From: a virus
Virus record (IMG/VR): IMGVR_UViG_3300045988_179398
Location: 32,001 to 96,000 of that record
Length of the DNA stretch: 64,000 bases
Strand: one strand, 5' to 3'
Shown here: piece after piece, positions 5,199 to 60,882 of the stretch
How the letters are laid out: each line of letters opens with the position of its first letter
How positions within the stretch are numbered: the first letter of the stretch is position 1
The notes under the pieces: generated by a model
Told to the model about the DNA's origin: nothing
Databases searched by the model: none
The model's input: the letters and a program-made list of their open reading frames with translations, nothing else
Made by a program: the position numbers and the translations under genes

Positions 5199-6200
5199 GT
5201 GAAAATTTATAACCCGAATTTACCGCAAAGTCTCGTTGATGAGCTTAATCGGCTTAATGCGACGTATTTTCAATTCGATGAGCCCGTTCCATTTAAAGAC
5301 GGTTTGACGTTATACCCGATAAACGTTCGGTATCATGATGAATTTTTAGCTGCGTCGGAGTGTCTAACACTTAATAAAGACGACGTGGAAGGGAACGAGG
5401 AGAAAACTAACCTCGAATATCTTTTGCTGAAGATGAGTGGAAAAGCCGACTCGCAAGACAAAGATGGACCGCTGAAAGGCGCGTTAGAAAAAGCCGCCGA
5501 AGAGAAAAAGGCTAAGGAAGAGCAGGCTCGAATTTCGCAGTATTTTATACGCATTTGCGAGTTGGTTTTTCATGTGAAATATGGTATTCGTTGTGCGAAG
5601 TGCGGAAAAGTTTACGATTATCAAGAGTTTTTAATAAAAGCGCTTGATAAAGAGCATCCATTCCATTGCGAGTGTTATAAAGGCGAAGAAGGTAAGGAGG
5701 AAGACTTCGATATAAACATAAAATATCGAATGAATCCCGAAACTAAAAAATACGAAATTTTGATTAACGGAATTACGATAACGTCGGAAGACTTCGACCG
5801 TTTGAGACAAATTGTAATGTATCAAAATTTACCCGATTTTAAGGATGACACTTGGGTTGATCCCGATATGAGAGCCGATCAAGCGGAGAAACAAAGGCTT
5901 TTGGCGAAGAAAAACAATGCTGGAACTGCGACGCTTGAAAGAAAGATTGTTTGCGTTTCGGCGAAATCGTGTTATAAAATCGGAGATATTTACAAATTAA
6001 CGATGAGAAAATTCTTGATTTTGTTGTCTGCGATTGACGACGCGATGAATTATGAATGCACACGTATCGGTTTAATGACTGGTATGGTGAGTATGAAAGA
6101 ACCAGTTGAACACTGGATTTATAAGAAAGAATCTGATGATTTGTATGGCGGAGAGGCGGTAAGCCTTGATGAAATGAAACAAACTTTGGGTTCTGAATAA
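5199..6200 (+). CDS. Hypothetical protein with central Cys-rich (zinc-ribbon-like) segment
   Basis: 333-aa ORF with a GTG start after GAGGCGG. Contains CAKCGK...HCEC. Confidence 0.55.
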   Translation: MKIYNPNLPQSLVDELNRLNATYFQFDEPVPFKDGLTLYPINVRYHDEFLAASECLTLNKDDVEGNEEKTNLEYLLLKMSGKADSQDKDGPLKGALEKAAEEKKAKEEQARISQYFIRICELVFHVKYGIRCAKCGKVYDYQEFLIKALDKEHPFHCECYKGEEGKEEDFDINIKYRMNPETKKYEILINGITITSEDFDRLRQIVMYQNLPDFKDDTWVDPDMRADQAEKQRLLAKKNNAGTATLERKIVCVSAKSCYKIGDIYKLTMRKFLILLSAIDDAMNYECTRIGLMTGMVSMKEPVEHWIYKKESDDLYGGEAVSLDEMKQTLGSE

Positions 6201-30453: not shown

Positions 30454-33400
30454 ATGGCGGTTTATAAACCAAGTAATTGCGTCCCGTTTTTATCTTGTTG
30501 GGATTTGACGCAGCCCCAATACATTAGCGGAGAATTGAACACTTCGAATGAAACCGTGACGGGGTATAAAGTTAGAGTTTTAGATAGTGAAAATAACACA
30601 ATTTTTGAAGGGAGCGAGTTTAACCCAATAAACTTTTCAGACAAAGTAATAAACAGCGGTCTCAACGGCTCAATTTTAACTCTTCCCTTAATTGTTTCGG
30701 TTGATAACTTGGAGACTGCGGATGCGCAGTATAATTTTATATATTATCAGAAAGGGCAAAATAAGTGGTATGGTTTTGCCAAAAACTCTTTTTACGAAAT
30801 CTCCAATTTTTCGAACAATTATCCCGACCAGCCATACAAATGGCAGATAACGCTCGCACAGGGTCAGCAAAACATAGATGGTGTTCTTGAACAGCAACCC
30901 TCCGACGAATACTTCGATATGGTAATCGACGAAGCAAAAATTCTCGGCTCGACTGGAAACCGTATTCAGAGTTGGTTGTCGGAAAATATATACAAAGATT
31001 ATTACATTCAATTATACGACGCAAGTAACAACGAACTCGGCGTGAGAACGCGCATCTCGAGTTACGATCATTCTTATGGTTTCATATACCCGCAAGAAAA
31101 TACGATTTCGCAAGAATTGGTCGATAGTGCGAGTTACTTTAAAATCTTCAAAGACACGAATGACCCGCAATACGTTTCAACGGCGAGGTTGATTAATTAC
31201 AGGTTAAAGACCGATATAGACAAGGTTGTGCTTGATGGTAAATTCCCGATAAATACTGAAAGTTTCGATGGTAGATTTAAACCTTCGGGAGATCCTTCTG
31301 TAGTTTCAAACCCTTATTTTACGCAGGTTTATGACGGGGATGTAACGAGTAATGTTACTTACGGAGCTTATACAAGGACAGAGAATACCACACCCCTCGC
31401 GGAAGGTACGACGTTTTTACTTATGTATCAAGGCGATACAAATACCGAACCAAACCCTACTTATAATAAATATAATGGTGTGTTTGCTTTCCAGTCGGCA
31501 GAGTTTAAAGATGGGAAAACCACGATTAAATGGTTACGCCCCGCTAACTTCAACAAATACTCCGATTTTCTTAATCGGTTGATTTGCGTTCAAAGCGAAA
31601 ACACAAATTACAGCACGAGCGCGACGGCAGAAAATCTCGGTACGATTAACCAAACCGAATTGATGTTCTACGACGAAACCGCGATAGGGTTATACCCCGT
31701 TTACGAAGACGGAACCAAGACTCTGAAAGTCGCGGAGGTAACGCTCGCCAATTCCGCGATAGGGAAGCCGCAAAATTTTGAGGGCGGCATCATTTCGTCG
31801 GTAAAGGTCAAAGCTCAACTAACGGGGGTAACCTTAACTGCGATTTGTCTTGGCGGTAATAAGTATGTTGTTAAAGCGCCAGATACATATACAGGAACGG
31901 CAACCGTAAATATCACCTATATGGAAGATAAAGGTGAAGTTTTCAAAAATACGGCGGGAAAGGCGTATATACGCCCGTTTATTGGAATTCATGCGGGCGA
32001 TAAACTTTTTTATGGGAAGGACTTTGCTTCAAGCGTTACAATCGATTATATCGATGACGTCGGTAATTCGAAGAACAAATTTAGCCCGACGTGGTATATC
32101 GAATACAACTCCGCCGAGAAGAAGTTGGACCTCGACGATAAATATTCGATTCGTTCGTTCTTCAAAACAAGCGACGAAAACCCGTTTTACGCAAAAGCTT
32201 CGCCCGTTTTAACCATCGATTGCGATCAATGGGAGAAAGATAGCGAAGATAAATATTACAAAAACGAGTACGGTTATTGCGTATGCAAAAGAAGATATGT
32301 AACATTTAAAGGCACAATTACCAATCGCAACTGGGTTAATTATCAATGGGTATTAACAGACCTTACGACCAACAACACCCAGATTTCCGAGAAAATTTAT
32401 CGCGGTAGTACGGAATGCACTTTTTACGGATTACAAAACGACCATTATTACGAAATATCTTGGATAGTTGAAGACGAGTTTGGCGGCATTTTTACCTGCG
32501 AGCAAGTCTTTTTCTTAGACGTATCCATCAACGACAGCCCGTTCCCGTTCGAAGCGAAATATGAGTGCGAAACGCAATCGGTGCTCATCAACTTCGCCAG
32601 AGATGGCGTAATTATCCCCGATCCTGCATTATATAGTTACGATACGTTTATGGTGAGGGTGGAAGAAGGTTCTAATATTTATCAGCCTTACATTGTGAAA
32701 GGGGAGAAAAATCTCAAGTATACTTATAGGGTTTTGGCTGAAAATAACTTTGACCCCGATAAGGCCGATTACACGATAGAATACGTTGACACCGATACGG
32801 ACAATGGTTATCTTCAATTAGGCGACATACAACCCGAAACTCCGTCCCCCGACCTTACTTATCTTATGAGTTATACGATGACGCAGATAGGAGACTCTGA
32901 ATCGGCAACGGGTGAAATCCCCGCGCCAACATCGGATGATTTTGCGCTCAATTCACAGCACGTTCTTAACGCGAATTTTGTCGGCGATGTGATAACTTAC
33001 GAAATTGACATCGAAGATTTTAACGATTTGCCTGCGCACATAGGGTTAGCGGTAGAATTATTGCCTCCGTCTAAAACTAATGCGGAAGGAGAGGTTGAGG
33101 CAGAAGAAAACCGCAACAAGATAAAGTTGAATTGTTATAAAAAAATCAACAACGGGGCGCCTTTGAATAAATATGAAATCTTTTTCAACATTTTCAAAAA
33201 AGATGGCGGCGGCAAATGGGTAAAAGATGAGAGCGGAAAATGGCAAGAAGAAAATCCCGTTGTCTCAGCATGGATACCCGACAAGGGTTATACGGCAAAA
33301 GACAACCGCGATTATATTCCCACAACACACCCATACGTTTGGGACGGTACGAAACAAGCTCCCGACAATAATTACTTAAACATCACGGGCGAGGGCGCGC

Positions 33401-52208: not shown

Positions 52209-52907
52209 ATGAATATTTTTGAGAAAATTCAAGCGGTGAGAGTTGAACTCCGCCACACAAAACTTAAAATGAGCGGCAAAAACAAGTTCGCGAATTACGA
52301 ATATATGGAACTCGACGACTTTCTTCCCACACTCAACGAACTTATGTATAAGTATAAAATAACGGCGATCGCTTCGTTTACGAGAGAGAAAGCAACTCTC
52401 ACGGCAATCGACTGCGAAAAGCCCGAAGATAGATATACGATTGAATCACCGTTCGGAACAGCCGACCTTAAAGGCTGTCACGAAGTTCAGTGTATCGGCG
52501 CGGTCGAAACTTATCAGCGTCGTTACCTTTATCAGGCGATGTTCGACATCGCAGAAAGCGACGGTTTGAACAAGTCGCAGGGCGACCCGAGCAAACCCAC
52601 TCCGAAGAAGACGGCTGAATTCCCGAGCCATACGGAAGAAGAGCCGCTTCCTGGTGAAGAAAAGCCCTCTGCAAAACCTGTGAAACCCGTTGACGAAAAA
52701 GACCCGAATGGCGCGGAAAGATGCGCAAAAATAAAGGAAGTTTTCAACGCGAAGAGAAAGGCGAAAGAACTGACGACCGATACGCAGAAGGCGATTAAAA
52801 AGTTGTTAGTTGAAAATAGTGAAGACGGCGCGGGAATGTTGAACGAGAATTACTCGGTGAAGGTTTACGACCAACTCGAAGAATTACTCGGAATGGGTGA
52901 GGTATAG
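52209..52907 (+). CDS. erf: ERF-family single-strand annealing recombinase
   Basis: KFANYEYMELDDFLPTLNELMYKYKI...IGAVETYQRRYLYQAMFDIAESD matches the ERF core. Confidence 0.85.
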   Translation: MNIFEKIQAVRVELRHTKLKMSGKNKFANYEYMELDDFLPTLNELMYKYKITAIASFTREKATLTAIDCEKPEDRYTIESPFGTADLKGCHEVQCIGAVETYQRRYLYQAMFDIAESDGLNKSQGDPSKPTPKKTAEFPSHTEEEPLPGEEKPSAKPVKPVDEKDPNGAERCAKIKEVFNAKRKAKELTTDTQKAIKKLLVENSEDGAGMLNENYSVKVYDQLEELLGMGEV

Positions 52908-52990
52908 GTTTGCAACTTCATTAGTTAAAACTGATAGGTTAAGAGCTTCAGTGAAGAGAGAATATATAATCAGAAGGAGGTGATAAGTAA

Positions 52991-54103
52991 ATGTTAAAAG
53001 CGTATAAATACAGATTGTATCCAAACAAACAACAAGAAGAACAAATTCATAAAACTTTTGGCTGTTGCAGATTTGTGTATAATCAAATACTTGCTTATAG
53101 AAAAGAGAAATATAAGCAAGATAAACAACATATGAATAAAATTTCTTGTAATAATTACTGTAATCAAGTTCTTAAAAAAGAATATGAATGGCTGAAAGAG
53201 GTAGACAAATTTGCATTAACAAATTCAATTTATAATATGGATTCAGCATATCAAAAATTCTTCAAAGAACACGCGGGTTACCCTAAATTTAAGAGTAAGA
53301 AAAATCCTAAAAGAAGTTATACTACTAATCTTACGGGTAGAAATATAGAAGTTTCTTTTAACAATAATAAAATCAAACTTCCGAAACTTAAATGGGTAAA
53401 AGCAAAAGTCCACAGAGAGTTTCAAGGACAAATTAAGTCTGCAACTATATCGCAAATACCTTCTGGAAAATATTTTGTATCTGTATTGGTAGAAACAAGA
53501 CATATTCCAATGGATTCAACTGGAAATATGATTGGATTAGATCTAGGTATTAAAGATTTGCTTATTACTTCTGATGGTAAAAAGTATGGTAATATTCGTG
53601 CTACTAAGAAATATGAGAAGAAGTTAGTAAAAGAACAAAGAAAATTATCTCATAAAGTAAAAGGTAGCAACAACTGGAATAGGCAAAGAATTAAAGTGGC
53701 GCGTATCCATGAGAAAATTCATAACACAAGAATTGATAACTTACATAAAATTTCGCATAAACTTATTCAGGAAAACCAACTAATAGTTAGTGAAGATTTA
53801 TCTGTAAATAATATGATGAAGAATCATAATCTTGCAAAAGCAATTTCAGATTGTGGGTGGTATGAATTAACAACACAGTTGGGTTATAAGAGTGATTGGA
53901 ACAATCGACGGTATATTAAGATTGGAAGATTTACCAAGAGTAGTCAATCCTGTAATGTGTGCGGTTATATCAATACAGATACAAAAGACTTATCTGTTAG
54001 AGAATGGATATGTCCTCAATGTAATACAAAGCACAATAGAGATATAAACGCTGCGATTAATATACTCAACGAAGGGTTACGATTGCTTAATGAGGTAGCC
54101 TAA
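52991..54103 (+). CDS. tnpB: TnpB (IS200/IS605-family RNA-guided endonuclease), copy 1
   Basis: MLKAYKYRLYPNKQQEEQIHKTFGCCRFVYNQ. RuvC triad intact (GLDLGIKD, IVSEDLSVNNM, HNRDINAAINI). Zinc finger CNVCGY...CPQCN. No tnpA adjacent. Confidence 0.9.
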   Translation: MLKAYKYRLYPNKQQEEQIHKTFGCCRFVYNQILAYRKEKYKQDKQHMNKISCNNYCNQVLKKEYEWLKEVDKFALTNSIYNMDSAYQKFFKEHAGYPKFKSKKNPKRSYTTNLTGRNIEVSFNNNKIKLPKLKWVKAKVHREFQGQIKSATISQIPSGKYFVSVLVETRHIPMDSTGNMIGLDLGIKDLLITSDGKKYGNIRATKKYEKKLVKEQRKLSHKVKGSNNWNRQRIKVARIHEKIHNTRIDNLHKISHKLIQENQLIVSEDLSVNNMMKNHNLAKAISDCGWYELTTQLGYKSDWNNRRYIKIGRFTKSSQSCNVCGYINTDTKDLSVREWICPQCNTKHNRDINAAINILNEGLRLLNEVA

Positions 54104-54211
54104 AGATATTTAATAGGGTTGGAACAATCCAAATTTACGCTTGTGGAGTTAGTAGGTTACGAGGACGTTGAAACAAGAAACTCATCGAGTTTTAGTTCAT
54201 GGGTAGTTCAC
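54104..54211 (+). ncRNA. Omega-RNA (reRNA) 3' scaffold of TnpB-1 (approximate; the 5' part probably overlaps the end of the ORF)
   Basis: Hairpins TTGGA-ACAA-TCCAA and AAACTC-ATC-GAGTTT. Ends in GGGTAGTTCAC. Its position directly 3' of tnpB is as in characterised systems. Confidence 0.55.
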
Positions 54212-54282: not shown

Positions 54283-54317
54283 AAACGCTTGACAAATGGG
54301 TTTTGGTGTGGTATAAT
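54283..54317 (+). promoter_or_regulatory. Consensus phage promoter copy 5
   Basis: AAACGC, TTGACA at 54289-94, 17-nt spacer, TGGTATAAT with -10 at 54312-17. Confidence 0.8.
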
Positions 54318-54578: not shown

Positions 54579-55115
54579 ATGCAAGTAAAATGTCAAATTT
54601 GCGGCAAATCAATCGACCGTTCAACTGCATATAAAGTCGTGGTCAGCGGCACGAACAAATATTTTTGCTCGGAAGAAGAATTCAACGCTGATAAAGCCCG
54701 CAAAGACCACGCGAAAGAAGTTCTCGAAACGATTGCGGAGTGTTATCAATATTGCTCTGGTTATGGGGAACCGCCTTATAACGTGGTTAAAAAAGAACTT
54801 AAAGAAAACCTCAAAACGGTCGATATCGAGACGATTTATCAATTCGTAAAAGAAAACCGCGAAAAACTCAAAAAGACGATTGAAAAGAAAATCGAACGAG
54901 ATGGACCGTTTTCGCAGGTTTATTTCTTGTTTAGGTATGTGAGTGGGATAATAAAACGGGAAATACTTGAACACGGTTGGAAGGCGGCACAAGTCGCGCC
55001 GACCATTCAAAAAACTGGGATTGATTTGAATTTTTATAATGTCAAACCGAACACAAATCAACTTAAAAAGAGACGCTCGTTAGATGAATTGGAGGATCAA
55101 CTACTCAGCCCTTAA
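54579..55115 (+). CDS. Hypothetical protein with N-terminal zinc-ribbon (CQICGK...YFCSEE)
   Basis: 178-aa ORF with GGAGGA upstream. Confidence 0.5.
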   Translation: MQVKCQICGKSIDRSTAYKVVVSGTNKYFCSEEEFNADKARKDHAKEVLETIAECYQYCSGYGEPPYNVVKKELKENLKTVDIETIYQFVKENREKLKKTIEKKIERDGPFSQVYFLFRYVSGIIKREILEHGWKAAQVAPTIQKTGIDLNFYNVKPNTNQLKKRRSLDELEDQLLSP

Positions 55116-55327
55116 AAAGGTGTGGGCTTGCCCACTAGTTGATCAGACTAAGTGTTAAGCTACGTTATCAAAGAATATATAGGCACCGTAGGATGTATTC
55201 TCCAGTCTTACGCTCTGCGGTATGTGATTAAACAGTTCTGATGAGTAGGAACAGTGTTGCATACGAAAACCTTTGAATAACATTGTCGTGGAGTAACCAC
55301 TCTAACATATAGGAGGCTATAAAAGCA
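55116..55327 (+). ncRNA. IscB-associated omega-RNA (HEARO-type) candidate
   Basis: 212-nt non-coding, comparatively GC-rich segment immediately 5' of iscB on the same strand, which is the known location of IscB omega-RNAs. Its 5' boundary and guide are undefined. Confidence 0.55.
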
Positions 55328-56608
55328 ATGGTATATGTATTAAATAAACAAGATGAACCAATAATGCCTTGCAAGGAAGCGAAAGCAAGAAAATTGCTTA
55401 AACAGAGTAAGGCAAAAATAGCAAAACACGAACCGTTTACAATTCAGTTATTGTTCGATTGTGAAAATCAGATACAAGAAGTAAATTTGGGAATTGATGC
55501 GGGAAGTAAACATATTGGTGTTTCGGCAACGACAGAAAAGCAGGTCTTATACGAGGCAGATGTTGAGCTGAGAAATGATATTGTTAATAAGTTATCTTCT
55601 CGTCGCGAGGCTCGTAGAACTCGTAGAAACAGATTAAGATACCGCCCCGTAAGGTTTAATAATCGAATTAAATCAAAATATAAAGAGTGGTTAGCTCCGA
55701 GTATTAAACAAAAGATAAACACGCATATTCAAGTTATAAAACACTTATACGAAATTTTGCCGATAACAAATCTCATTGTAGAAACCGCTCAATTTGATAT
55801 TCAAAAGATGAATAATTCCGAGATATCAGGTGAAGGATATCAACAAGGTGAACAATTGGGATTTTGGAATGTAAGAGAGTATGTGCTTTACCGCGACAAT
55901 CACGAATGTCAATATTGCCACGGTAAATCAAAAGACAATATATTAAATGTTCATCATATTGAAAGTCGGAAAACAGGCGGAAATGCACCAAATAATTTAA
56001 TTACTTTGTGTGAAACTTGTCATAAAGCTTATCATAAAGGCGAGATTAAATTAAATCTAAAGCGCGGTAAAAGCTATCGGGACGCGGCATTTATGGGTAT
56101 TATGCGTAAAACATTACTTAATCGATTACGCGTGTTATATCCAAATGTTTGCGAAACGTATGGCTATATAACCAAGAACGTTCGTATCGAAAATAACTTG
56201 CCAAAAGAACATTATATAGACGCTCGGTGTATAAGTGGTAATCCAAAAGCAAATCCATTAGATTATTACATTTATCAGAAATGTGTCAGAAGACAGAACA
56301 GACAAATTCATAAAAATAAAATTTTAAGCGGCAGCCGAAAGAGAAATAATCAAGCACCAAGATATGTTTTCGGGTTTAAACTCTTTGATCTTGTAAAATA
56401 TAATAAACAAAATTACTATGTTTTTAGCAGAAGAACAAGTGGCGCCTTTGATATAAGAAATCTTAATGGAGAAAAAATAAACAATGGTTCAATAAGTTAT
56501 AAGAAACTTAAAAAGATTAAACACAATTCAACAAAACTAATAGAAAGGAGGCGGCAATTCCTCTGCATCTCTAAAAGGGATGTGGTTTCTTTGCCGAAAA
56601 TTTTATGA
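55328..56608 (+). CDS. iscB: IscB (OMEGA RNA-guided nuclease; PLMP + split RuvC + HNH)
   Basis: PLMP domain VYVLNKQDEPIMPCKEAKARKLLKQSKAKI..PFTIQL. RuvC-I LGIDAGSKHIG. HNH CQYCHG...VHHIESRKTGG..NLITLCETCHKAYH. RuvC-III HYIDARC. Confidence 0.85.
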   Translation: MVYVLNKQDEPIMPCKEAKARKLLKQSKAKIAKHEPFTIQLLFDCENQIQEVNLGIDAGSKHIGVSATTEKQVLYEADVELRNDIVNKLSSRREARRTRRNRLRYRPVRFNNRIKSKYKEWLAPSIKQKINTHIQVIKHLYEILPITNLIVETAQFDIQKMNNSEISGEGYQQGEQLGFWNVREYVLYRDNHECQYCHGKSKDNILNVHHIESRKTGGNAPNNLITLCETCHKAYHKGEIKLNLKRGKSYRDAAFMGIMRKTLLNRLRVLYPNVCETYGYITKNVRIENNLPKEHYIDARCISGNPKANPLDYYIYQKCVRRQNRQIHKNKILSGSRKRNNQAPRYVFGFKLFDLVKYNKQNYYVFSRRTSGAFDIRNLNGEKINNGSISYKKLKKIKHNSTKLIERRRQFLCISKRDVVSLPKIL

Positions 56609-58185
56609 AGCAGATGGCTAACAAAGAGGCTTTTATTGCGGGAATATGTGACAAAATAGACGAAAGACTTCTTGAAGATCGCGTTACAATCGAAGGAAAT
56701 GCCGTCTCAATCTTTTTACAGGATTTGACGAATTACAACGATATCAACTATAAACCCGAAGATTTTCTAACGAAAGATGGTCGATTCCTTTTCTGCGTAG
56801 GGAAGTCGCTTCGTGATTTGGGGTATAATTACCTCGATGAAGTAACGATTATGTCAAAGTGTTCGCAGGAAATCAAAGACAGAATTTCCGCGCTTGGTGG
56901 GTATAAGACGATTCAACATCTTCTCGATGTCGTGAATGCCGAAAACGCTGACGCAATTCTCGATGATCTGACGAAGAGTAATATTCTGGTTAAACTTTAC
57001 AAAAGCGGGTTCAATCTTTTCGACGAAGTAACGCTCGATAACGGGAAACGTATTTCCCCATTTAAGTTGTTTAAGAATTTCACTTCGACGGAAGTTCTTG
57101 ATTGGTACGACGCGAAAATCAGCGGATTAAGCAAGGTCAATAATAACCAAATCATCTACGACGAATACGTCGATTTCGGCGAAAAATTCATCTCGGATTT
57201 GCAAAACAACGTCGATAGCGGTGTTTCGTTTGCGGACGCTGGCGAAGACATCAACGGCGAAAAAATCAGCGTCGCGCCCTTTTTGAGCAGTAATATACTC
57301 GGTCTCGCGCCTGGAACATTAAGCCTTTTCGGCGGGTTCAGCGGCGTTGGTAAGACGACTTATATGGTCGGCGTGATTATGGCGCTTATTTCGCAGGGTA
57401 AAAAGGTTCTTGTGCTCGAAAACGAGATTATGAAGAACAAACTTTATCTTATGATTTTCAGTTGGTTTATCTCCCGTTATATGGGTTATCAGAAACTGCC
57501 GAAGAAAAAACTCGAATCGGGTGTTTATACCGACGAAGAAAAGAAGGTAATCGCCGAGGCCGAAAAACAATGGAAAGAGAAGTTCGCAGACAAATTGCGT
57601 GTTGTCGGTTTATCGTCGGCAAACTCGAAGTTGAGTTCGCAAATCATCAAAAACGCAGTACTTCGTTCGGGGTTTGATGTGTTCATTGTGGATACATTCA
57701 AGCTCGACGATAGTGCAGACATAAACGGCGCGTTGTGGCAGGTTATGAAGAACAACATCAGCGAACTCGAAGGACTAACGAAGAAATACGGCGTTATCGG
57801 AATCGCGACCGTTCAGCTGACGAATAACGACTTAAAACGGTTATGGCTTGATTCAAGCTGTCTTGGAACATCGAAAGGCATTAAGGAAGTGTGTTCTAAC
57901 CTGATTTTGCTCAGAAAGCTTGGAGGAGATTTGGAGTTAATTAACGGCTCGGATATTTACTGTCGACCGTTCCGTTCAAAGAAAAACGAGCAGGGCGACT
58001 GGGTAGAAGAACCGTATGATGCCGACCCAAGCAAGGTTTGGAGAGTGCTTTTCATAGATAAATCTCGTTCTGGTCCCGACAGCGGCGATACGGGCGTAGC
58101 GTATTTGTTGAGATACGACGGCGATCACTGCTCATTTTATGAAACGGCGAAGTGTCGCCCTGTTAGAAAGATTATAAATGGTTGA
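56605..58185 (+). CDS. Replicative DNA helicase (DnaB-like)
   Basis: Walker A GGFSGVGKTTYM, Walker B FDVFIVDTFKLDD. ATGA overlap with the iscB stop and no Shine-Dalgarno site of its own. Confidence 0.7.
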   Translation: MKQMANKEAFIAGICDKIDERLLEDRVTIEGNAVSIFLQDLTNYNDINYKPEDFLTKDGRFLFCVGKSLRDLGYNYLDEVTIMSKCSQEIKDRISALGGYKTIQHLLDVVNAENADAILDDLTKSNILVKLYKSGFNLFDEVTLDNGKRISPFKLFKNFTSTEVLDWYDAKISGLSKVNNNQIIYDEYVDFGEKFISDLQNNVDSGVSFADAGEDINGEKISVAPFLSSNILGLAPGTLSLFGGFSGVGKTTYMVGVIMALISQGKKVLVLENEIMKNKLYLMIFSWFISRYMGYQKLPKKKLESGVYTDEEKKVIAEAEKQWKEKFADKLRVVGLSSANSKLSSQIIKNAVLRSGFDVFIVDTFKLDDSADINGALWQVMKNNISELEGLTKKYGVIGIATVQLTNNDLKRLWLDSSCLGTSKGIKEVCSNLILLRKLGGDLELINGSDIYCRPFRSKKNEQGDWVEEPYDADPSKVWRVLFIDKSRSGPDSGDTGVAYLLRYDGDHCSFYETAKCRPVRKIING

Positions 58186-58195
58186 GGAAGCGGAT

Positions 58196-59026
58196 ATGGA
58201 AACAAAAATTATGTACGGGCAGGAAGTTGCCCAAAATATGCTGAAAGATTTGACGTGGAACCCTCGGCACACCTTATATATTCTCTCGAATCAAGCCGAC
58301 CCCGCAAGCGCGGTGTATGTTCGAAATAAGAAAAAGAAGTGTGAAGAGGTCGGGGTTAGATGCGTCGTTTATGATATTTCAAGTTCTTGTATAGAGCAGA
58401 TTAACGATATTTTGTATAACGAAATCAGTCTCAGTTCGGAAAAATATTACGTCATCATTCAAAAGCCATTGCCCGTTCAACTTCGTGAATATGAAAAAGA
58501 GATTGACGCTTTTTTCAAAAAATTCCCCGATGCAGACATTGACGCATTTGGAGGCGATTTGTCAACTGAATTTAAGACGCCAGCAACCCCGCTCGGAGTT
58601 ATGAAAATGTTGGATTATTACGTCGGCACGAAAACACTCGATGGATTAAATACGGTTGTGCTCGGTCGTTCTGAAATCGTTGGAAAACCGATGGCGGGAT
58701 TGTTACTCAACGCAAACTGCACCGTGACTGTTTGCCATTCGCACACAAAAAATCTCAAAGATTACACGCGTAACGCCGACTTGATTGTTAGCGCGATTGG
58801 GAAACCGAAATTCATTACGAGCGATTATATAGGCGATAATCGTCCTATAATCGTGGATGTCGGGATTAACCGTGATGAAAACGGAAAATTGTGCGGCGAC
58901 GTCGACTTTGAAGACGTAAAAGAAAAATGCTCATTTATCAGCCCAGTACCAAAAGGCGTTGGCGTTTTGACTGTCGCGAGTTTGGTATATAAAATGGGTA
59001 AAAAAATTTTTAAAAAAATAACGTAA
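58196..59026 (+). CDS. folD: Bifunctional methylene-THF dehydrogenase/methenyl-THF cyclohydrolase
   Basis: GRSEIVGKPMAGLLLNANCTVTVCHSHTKNL...ADLIVSAIGKP...VDVGINR...GDVDF...SPVPKGVGVLTVASL. Start chosen after GAGGAAG. Confidence 0.9.
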   Translation: METKIMYGQEVAQNMLKDLTWNPRHTLYILSNQADPASAVYVRNKKKKCEEVGVRCVVYDISSSCIEQINDILYNEISLSSEKYYVIIQKPLPVQLREYEKEIDAFFKKFPDADIDAFGGDLSTEFKTPATPLGVMKMLDYYVGTKTLDGLNTVVLGRSEIVGKPMAGLLLNANCTVTVCHSHTKNLKDYTRNADLIVSAIGKPKFITSDYIGDNRPIIVDVGINRDENGKLCGDVDFEDVKEKCSFISPVPKGVGVLTVASLVYKMGKKIFKKIT

Positions 59027-60807: not shown

Positions 60808-60882
60808 GCACCTTTAGTATAACGGTATTATCCTGGCCTCCAAAGCCATGGGAACTGAGTTCGAATCTTAGAGGGTGTGCCA
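60808..60882 (+). tRNA. tRNA-Trp (anticodon CCA), CCA end encoded
   Basis: 75-nt cloverleaf. Acceptor GCACCTT/AGGGTGT. D-loop AACGGTA. Anticodon loop CT-CCA-AA. T-arm CTGAG-TTCGAAT-CTTAG. One C-U mismatch at 27:43. Confidence 0.8.

Follow-up and report, generated by a model that had tools for sequence, protein, structure and literature searches.

A 1509-bp mobile element carrying a gene for an IscB nuclease together with its omega-RNA is inserted, as judged from the DNA of six relatives that lack it, into the spacer between the Shine-Dalgarno (SD) sequence and the start codon of a DnaB-like replicative helicase gene in a gut phage genome. The element occupies positions 55096–56604 (+ strand) of a 64,000-nt stretch of DNA, hereafter called the window, which corresponds to positions 32,001–96,000 of IMG/VR virus record IMGVR_UViG_3300045988_179398, and it consists of the omega-RNA scaffold, iscB, and a terminal hairpin. 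It is probable that read-through transcription supplies the guide of the omega-RNA from the flanking phage DNA, that the nuclease promotes homing into the uninterrupted site of related phages, and that translation of the helicase is now coupled to that of IscB.

The iscB open reading frame (ORF; 55328–56608, + strand) encodes 426 amino acids and was characterized using the ORF list, Pfam, and a phmmer search against PDB. The first-pass annotation of this DNA had read it as an IscB of full architecture, and all of the motifs that it listed were found. EPIMPC begins at residue 10, GIDAGS at 55, IVETAQ at 150, NVHHIE at 207, and HYIDARC at 295, and CETCH is also present. Pfam matched the product to RRXRR (PF14239; 1.2e-63, profile positions 1–174 of 174) and HNH (PF01844; 7.5e-10), and the top structures in the phmmer search were those of OgeuIscB (7utn/7xht, about 1e-42), to which the RuvC-I, HNH, and RuvC-III motifs align. 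The catalytic residues D57, E152, and D298 of RuvC and H209/H210 of HNH are all present and align with those of OgeuIscB, so that doubt about the catalytic alignment, also raised in the first pass, is removed. On sequence grounds, the ORF is an IscB, a member of the OMEGA RNA-guided nuclease family, and is predicted to carry out RNA-guided, double-strand cleavage that depends on a target-adjacent motif. Its own SD (GGAGG, 55312–55316, + strand; −10.2 kcal/mol) lies 11 nt 5′ of the iscB ATG and is kept in related copies. The identical IscB protein, in the same gene order, was found on 15 contigs, the six shown representing six ENA metagenome assemblies, one of which is labeled gut. Therefore, the arrangement in the window is not an assembly artifact, and a phage bearing it is viable in nature. 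The source samples are described as gut metagenomes, and the nearest cellular homologs belong to Bacillota.

The omega-RNA scaffold (HEARO RNA; the right-end side in insertion sequence [IS] terms) spans 55096–55300 on the + strand. It matches Rfam RF02033 with 119.6 bits (gathering score, 83; E = 3.9e-24) over model positions 1–211 of 211, and an Rfam scan of the whole window gave two matches at the gathering threshold, namely HEARO and one tRNA. The HEARO match ends 27 nt before the iscB ATG and falls in the 212-nt leader that follows the stop codon of the upstream gene (55115), which is where an omega-RNA had been expected from the gene order; the full-length covariance match bears this out. 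The outermost helix, P1 in the cmscan structure line, is the hairpin GATCAACTA (55095–55103)/TAGTTGATC (55136–55144), which spans 55095–55144 on the + strand and encloses the TAA stop codon (55113–55115) of the upstream gene. This hairpin had been proposed to mark either the left boundary or the guide region. Its 5′ foot is indeed the element boundary, but the guide would be the 16 nt before it, TTAGATGAATTGGAGG (55080–55095, + strand), directly 5′ of HEARO model position 1. We take the length of 16 nt to be as in characterized IscBs. The putative guide is flanking phage DNA inside the upstream gene, and it terminates in the native SD of the helicase, GGAGG.

The insertion boundaries were determined from empty sites. 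A megablast search of the 10-kb region against GenBank phages gave no match, and relatives were recovered from IMG/VR via the helicase protein, yielding six contigs (L001–L006) of 66–147 kb with helicases that are 98–99% identical. In the DNA alignment, two window blocks were missing from all six, at about 52902–54211 (a TnpB element, described below) and at 55096–56604. At the latter, the flanks of the relatives join precisely (window 55095/55096 to 56605–56607, with a 2-nt AT boundary ambiguity); there is no target duplication, and the sole repeat is the 2-nt AT common to the element start (ATCAA) and the flank (ATGAA). The empty site reads ...GTTAGATGAATTGGAGG|ATGAAGTGGATGGTTAAC... in L005, where it includes TTGGAGG|ATGAAG with the target-adjacent motif (TAM) intact, and ...GTTAGACGAATTGGAGG|ACGAAGTAGATGGCTAAC... 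in L002. The upstream gene of the relatives terminates in ...EDEVDG-TAA, and within its end, GGAGG is found 9 nt 5′ of the helicase ATG; comparison with phages lacking iscB, which the first-pass annotation had pointed to, thus identifies this GGAGG as the native ribosome-binding site (RBS) of the helicase. The helicase start in the relatives is ATGGCT, ATGGTT, or ATGATT (window 56614), with an in-frame TAG directly before it in L001, L002, and L006. In the window, GGAGG (55091–55095) forms the last 5 nt before the element and is 1.5 kb from the helicase. The upstream gene (54579–55115, + strand; 178 amino acids in the ORF list, with a weak zinc-finger-like Pfam match alone) has its final 20 nt, including the stop codon, inside the element, and its product ends ...EDQLLSP* here versus ...EDEVDG* in the relatives. 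Because the flanks of the relatives join at this point and the GGAGG is now left of the element, the insertion is placed between the helicase SD and ATG.

The helicase ORF in the window (56605–58185, + strand; 526 amino acids) has a weak DnaB_C match and phage “replicative DNA helicase” homologs. Its native start is the ATG at 56614 (MANKE...), with which the ATG of the TAM is in frame (ATG AAG CAG ATG GCT). The TAM itself, ATGAA(G) (56605–56609, + strand), is already present in the L005 empty site; the helicase ORF begins with its ATG, and iscB terminates at its TGA. The iscB frame stays open up to the final nucleotide of the element and closes as TT|A TGA, of which the flanking TAM contributes the A and the TGA, so that in the ATGA at 56605–56608, the iscB stop (TGA, 56606–56608) overlaps the ATG of the helicase ORF. 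The 18 nt before this ATG contain no SD (+0.1 kcal/mol for the duplex with ACCUCCUUU), whereas an SD of −6 kcal/mol or better precedes 76% of the + strand ORFs of at least 120 amino acids in the window. The first-pass annotation was right, then, that iscB is embedded in the replication operon with its stop overlapping the helicase start and that the helicase has no SD of its own. A stop/start overlap and the lack of an independent SD are the sequence features of a translationally coupled pair, and both are present for iscB and the helicase. With the iscB stop on the ATGA and the helicase without its own SD, ribosomes ending IscB can restart on the helicase, and termination-reinitiation would be the simplest way to make the helicase. 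The ATGA overlap did not arise by local chance but follows from the family TAM, ATGAA. Since the GGAGG that stands 9 nt from the ATG in the relatives is 1.5 kb away in the window, the native RBS has become detached, and any obvious way of translating the helicase would now lead through the element. The first-pass annotation had also held that the helicase depends on the element and that the element is thereby hard to lose. The displacement of the native RBS, established from the six relatives, agrees with the former claim, and the dependence itself we infer; the latter would hold for imprecise loss, but precise loss would restore the native RBS, while also recreating the IscB target.

At its far end, the element carries a terminal two-tier hairpin (56552–56596, + strand; minimum free energy, −21.1 kcal/mol), in which CGGCAA...TTGCCG encloses TCTGCATCTC/AGGGATGTGG, followed by AAAATTTT. 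Across 26 related elements, compensatory changes occur at 10 of its 12 pairs. The iscB E-R-R codons immediately before the hairpin contain an SD-like GGAGG (56547–56551, + strand; −11.9 kcal/mol), and the 3′ foot of the hairpin is 8 nt from the helicase-ORF ATG. This GGAGG is hypothetically a candidate replacement RBS for the helicase. The helicase might then be translated independently of IscB, via a split RBS made of this GGAGG and the folded hairpin, with the ATGA overlap being incidental, although we regard this as rather unlikely. The strength of the motif, the stability of the hairpin, and the 8-nt distance fit such a device, and the layout of an SD-like motif, a covarying hairpin, 5–11 nt, and an ATG recurs in many relatives. 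Furthermore, the C-terminal E-R-R codons are almost always GAA AGG AGG/AGA in related elements (window 56540–56551), with AGG making up 65% of the Arg codons at this site versus 16% elsewhere in the IscB ORFs, and the GGAGG motif is gone in a clade without the hairpin, which uses the direct ATGA overlap. The AGG excess points to selection at the nucleotide level, but the motif also encodes the conserved E-R-R and can pair with CCTCC inside the hairpin (alternative folds), so this selection may equally act on structure and not on ribosome binding. The hairpin would be melted by ribosomes that translate iscB across it, as in the window frame, and it is already accounted for as a transposase-binding end; moreover, this route and translational coupling are not mutually exclusive. 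In most relatives, the iscB stop codon lies in the loop of the terminal hairpin (CTAAAG), which the window copy evades by a −1/+1 frame change. The inner stem (56563–56585) was considered as a terminator and rejected, since it lies inside the larger hairpin and such stems are not above the shuffled expectation (4 found versus 4.5 expected).

The published properties of IscB elements offer a framework for the guide and its target. In these elements, the scaffold is the transposon right end and the guide is the 5′-adjacent DNA outside the element (Meers et al. 2023; PMC10055086). The same study describes that omega-RNA production requires read-through transcription from outside, that upstream genes are strongly co-oriented, and that most iscB elements lack tnpA (PMC10055086). 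The TAM of the Geobacillus stearothermophilus IscB (ISGst5) is given there as 5′-TTCAT-3′ in the IS orientation, with single-base changes abolishing cleavage (PMC10055086); TTCAT is ATGAA on the iscB strand, and the window flank ATGAAG (56605–56610) therefore matches the published TAM. In the window, a sigma-70-type promoter, TTGACA-17-TATAAT with TG (54289–54317, + strand; 12/12 consensus match), lies between the TnpB and IscB elements, and TTGACA(16–18)TATAAT occurs at the equivalent place in all six relatives; promoter-like sites inside iscB were no more frequent than in shuffles. This promoter probably drives the replication operon and hence a transcript containing the guide, the omega-RNA, iscB, and the helicase.

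In the mechanism that we propose, transcription from the promoter at 54289 would read through the upstream gene into the element, giving the omega-RNA, and the 16 nt of phage DNA before the scaffold (TTAGATGAATTGGAGG) would become the guide. IscB and the omega-RNA would then recognize the uninterrupted site and the ATGAA TAM, that is, the empty allele of related phages, and the occupied locus would be spared because the guide match there precedes ATCAA, not ATGAA. An empty allele cut in a co-infecting or replicating genome would be repaired from the occupied copy, which amounts to homing, and the same process would restore the element after precise loss. New sites would be reached by transposition with TnpA supplied in trans. 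Since the TAM is ATGAA, the element would always end just before an ATG, and termination on IscB would hand ribosomes to the helicase; by a second, nonexclusive route, the GGAGG at 56547 would be brought within 8 nt of the ATG by the terminal hairpin. Presence and absence of the element at one site among close relatives are observed, and the match of guide and TAM is perfect for the L005 empty allele (16/16, with ATGAAG), not for the other five: L001, L002, and L006 have one mismatch and ACGAA, and L003 and L004 have two mismatches and ACGAG. In these five of the six contigs L001–L006 (around position 5985–5995), GAC replaces GAT in the Asp codon that forms the TAM, which is a synonymous change; it could be a chance polymorphism or a selected escape from the IscB element.

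The element is a nonautonomous member of the IS200/IS605-type IscB/ISC elements, on account of the lack of a TnpA within it, and this transposase-less element behaves close to ISGst5. In agreement with the first-pass statement that there is no tnpA, tblastn with the IS200 and IS608 TnpA found nothing in 86 viral loci or in the window, which covers 64 kb of a genome of at least about 124 kb. The same queries were positive at 1 of 80 cellular loci (L104, E = 2.5e-24), which serves as a positive control. Among the 166 IscB loci examined, this TnpA (L104:6533–6919, Clostridium vitabionis) is the only one found nearby; it is encoded 2.3 kb downstream, on the strand opposite to iscB, an orientation that would be expected for an iscB read against the transposon top strand. 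Both structured ends are present, with P1 and inner hairpins at the omega-RNA end and the covarying two-tier hairpin at the far end; by analogy, the latter would be the left-end hairpin of an IS200/IS605-type element, and TnpA binding to it is predicted. Pairs of elements that are 90–97.5% identical over 1.4–1.6 kb (full length) sit between unrelated 300-bp flanks, making movement to new sites evident. Decay also occurs, with premature stops in L008, L009, and L013. Another IscB element (L002:9936–11412, on the same contig as L008) was considered as a source of a second clean empty site and was rejected as decayed: premature stops interrupt its iscB, a deletion has removed its far end together with 62 nt of flank, and it occupies a different site from that in the window. 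The corresponding empty site in relatives is GGGG|AAGAAGG, not ATGAA. Exact-pattern searches for the empty sites of the insertions L056 and L077 found none. In one clade (L016, L017, L018, L023, L025, L029, and L041), the terminal hairpin has been lost and the element ends ...GCAAGTAAATTT|ATGA; its members are 91–96% identical to one another and yet occupy at least seven unrelated sites. Assuming that the transposase binds the hairpin as the left end, copies without it should be unable to transpose, and in this clade, either another upstream hairpin substitutes for it or the copies move by another route.

The arrangement in the window is the typical habitat of this IscB clade. IMG/VR contained 195 confirmed matches to IscB relatives (55–91% amino acid identity). 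Insertion sites were examined in a viral set of 47 distinct sites, with boundaries hand-curated by eye from the sequences, and in a cellular set of 80 loci, mostly Bacillota, with boundaries assigned by an automated procedure based on hidden Markov models. An ATG directly follows the element at 46 of the 47 viral sites, mostly as ATGAA (the exception, L016, has ATAAAA), and at 45 of 45 cellular sites (ATGAA at 38), and the ATG is invariant in all 26 aligned element ends. At 33 of the 47 viral sites, an ORF of at least 50 codons starts at the TAM ATG, against a background of 27% when every ATGAA in these loci is considered (p = 8e-10). In the left flank, the terminal 18 nt, where the guide is located, hold an SD at 18 of 44 viral sites (p = 4e-8), compared with 6.5% at random positions and 9.6% upstream of any ATGAA; both an SD and an ORF are found at 16 sites. 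The cellular set behaves similarly: an ORF of 50 codons or more begins at the TAM ATG at 32 of 45 sites (background, 31%; p = 3e-8), and an SD is present in the guide at 16 of 51 (background, 7.5%; p = 5e-7). A “first in-frame ATG” statistic did not separate real sites from the background (18/31 versus 48%). When empty viral sites were reconstructed, the ATG was preceded by a short in-frame open stretch, and a long ORF in another frame often ended within a few codons, indicating that the empty sites are gene junctions. The iscB stop falls on the TAM in 9 of the 47 viral sites, that is, in the window and in eight other independent insertions (seven with ATGA and one, L016, with TAA on a mutated ATAAA flank); it is no more than 13 nt from the ATG in seven further sites, and about 20 have it in the terminal hairpin loop. 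The closest homolog in the cellular collection (L093, CAVKBM010000005.1; 86% amino acid identity) is on a 62-kb contig of a “Bacteroidaceae bacterium” bin, where the element is followed by ATGAAC and a 256-codon ORF. The other cellular matches listed are mostly from Bacillota, and L093 may be a mis-binned phage contig.

We tentatively suggest, with somewhat more doubt than confidence, that this IscB lineage may be built for gene starts in operons, with a device for this purpose that combines the ATGAA TAM, the hairpin-flanked SD, and the stop-on-TAM frame. Equally tentatively, ATGAA may serve in this device as the transposase/nuclease motif, as a start codon (Met-Lys/Asn), and, through its TGA, as the iscB stop. 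If the TAM holds the start codon of the target gene, it follows that the guide would be the RBS of that gene. At an ATGA-type coupling junction, the element would stand in for the upstream cistron, and the downstream gene would be translated either through termination-reinitiation or from an SD within the element, with the hairpin as the bridge.

Several points weigh against an actively homing element to which helicase translation is coupled. Five of the six known empty alleles have an altered TAM (ATGAA to ACGAA or ACGAG); because such a TAM change abolishes cleavage in the published data, homing would currently be limited to L005-type phages. The IscB C-terminus in the window is unlike that of most relatives, owing to the −1/+1 frame change across the terminal hairpin, through which the usual loop stop codon is lost and 11 codons are gained, and this atypical frame could be an adaptation or early decay. 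The GGAGG-plus-hairpin route could free the helicase from IscB translation. The enrichment at gene starts may be pure survivorship, with intragenic insertions being lost, and the insertion-site statistics partly rest on hand-curated viral boundaries, the cellular set being automated.

Some of these points would also suit an inactive passenger, inserted once by a host-supplied TnpA, no longer cutting, and kept because its imprecise removal would kill helicase expression. The absence of a detectable TnpA in the window, the fact that most known empty alleles are uncleavable by the TAM rule, the atypical C-terminal frame, and the decay of relatives (premature stops in L008, L009, and L013 and loss of the far end in the L002 copy) are all in its favor. 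Against it stand an intact ORF with all catalytic residues, an omega-RNA that scores well above the family cutoff over the whole model, the conserved iscB SD, and the recent movement of very similar elements, and we consider a mere passenger improbable. Still less likely is co-option of the nuclease by the phage as a weapon that excludes competitors or as a regulator that tunes the replication operon: its position in an early/replication operon behind a strong conserved promoter, a guide whose target is found only in related phages, and the description of phage-encoded nuclease-dead TnpB relatives that act as transcription factors are compatible with it, but the guide is simply flanking DNA, as in every family member, patchy presence and movement between unrelated sites are the signature of a selfish element, exclusion and homing would be two outcomes of one cut, and the intact catalytic residues argue against a dead-nuclease regulator.

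The same operon contains a second OMEGA element (52902–54211, + strand), whose tnpB ORF (52991–54103) encodes a 370-amino-acid TnpB with HTH_OrfB_IS605, OrfB_IS605, and Cas12f1-like TNB domains. There is no tnpA with this element, which is missing from all six relatives. It sits exactly at the stop codon of the gene for an ERF-type recombinase (an annealing protein identified by Pfam), changing GGT GAA TAA in the relatives to GGT GAG GTA TAG in the window. Its guide would be the right flank, TAAGTTAAACTGCC; the Rfam scan of the window gave no family match for its RNA. The left flank of the TnpB element, GTGAR, is the reverse complement of its last bases, TTCAC. The helicase gene is followed by genes for a FolD-type methylenetetrahydrofolate dehydrogenase/cyclohydrolase and a small Sequestin-domain protein, with a tRNA further downstream (58178–59026, 60808–60879; L087:6906–7103). 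Of the long ORFs in the window, 45 are on the + strand versus 4 on the other.

The TAM of OgeuIscB is NWRRNA, different from ATGAA. The PLMP, RuvC-I, bridge, RuvC-II, HNH, and RuvC-III segments of this protein (PDB 7UTN, 7XHT) align with the window IscB, but OgeuIscB is about 70 residues longer and the identity is only moderate. The closest counterpart is ISGst5, which encodes a protein of the same family (catalytic numbering D58/H209/H210 there versus D57/H209/H210 here) and, as described in PMC10055086, shares the scaffold upstream of iscB, the external 5′ guide, the TTCAT TAM, the need for read-through, and upstream co-orientation. However, ISGst5 is a chromosomal IS present in multiple copies, and the same genome encodes its cognate TnpA (PMC10055086), whereas the window copy belongs to a phage, and no TnpA was found in the 64 kb. 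A term search of PMC10055086 returned no statement on a TAM that is a start codon, an iscB stop on the TAM, or a split between SD and ATG. The HEARO RNA is full-length and in the canonical position upstream of an RRXRR/HNH ORF, as in RF02033; peculiar to the window is that a phage gene runs into its first helix and takes its stop codon from there. Like the free-standing phage homing endonucleases of T4 (Seg, Mob; PMC13565253), the nuclease gene is wedged between conserved genes and missing from close relatives, and it would be expected to cut the allele of the relatives and to be copied by recombination in co-infection. The ERF-type recombinase of this phage is encoded 2.4 kb upstream. Unlike Seg and Mob, the target would be read by RNA from the flanking DNA rather than by protein, and the element is delimited by defined IS-type ends and can transpose to new sites; as with intron homing, it would be the insertion that distinguishes self from non-self. 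IStrons (group I intron plus TnpB; PMC10690162, PMC4227781) are likewise OMEGA elements with a built-in harmlessness device, often without TnpA, but they use RNA splicing, whereas the device proposed here is placement before a start codon and translational coupling. An IStron-like intron device was considered for the present case and rejected, as Rfam detects no intron in the window.

The element type itself is known, and it is the gene-start context in phages that is newly analyzed here. In the literature searched, there was no analysis of IscB in phages, and no link between the TAM and start codons was reported; one genome report mentions HEARO and RAGATH-18 in virulent Staphylococcus phages with no further analysis. 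Among GenBank phages, 34 of 50,697 records contain an IscB homolog, annotated as an HNH endonuclease or as hypothetical. The remark in the first-pass annotation that such genes are not commonly described is thus fair for the literature and for GenBank phages, but relatives are abundant in IMG/VR, as the 195 matches indicate. For annotation, genes labeled “HNH endonuclease” or “hypothetical” in GenBank phage records may be of this kind.

Cas9 and Cas12 descend from OMEGA nucleases (IscB and TnpB), whose natural biology is only beginning to be understood. In the present case, the guide, the TAM, and both the empty and the occupied alleles are known from sequence, and phage co-infection and recombination provide a natural test case for homing. 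The TAM of this clade coincides with start codons, with approximately 70% of about 90 insertions lying before a gene and a third splitting the SD from the ATG. A TAM that is a start codon would explain how a 1.5-kb insertion before an essential gene is tolerated. If the lineage is indeed built for gene starts, it would be a nearly cost-free RNA-guided homing element that resides before essential phage genes and is re-instated after precise loss.

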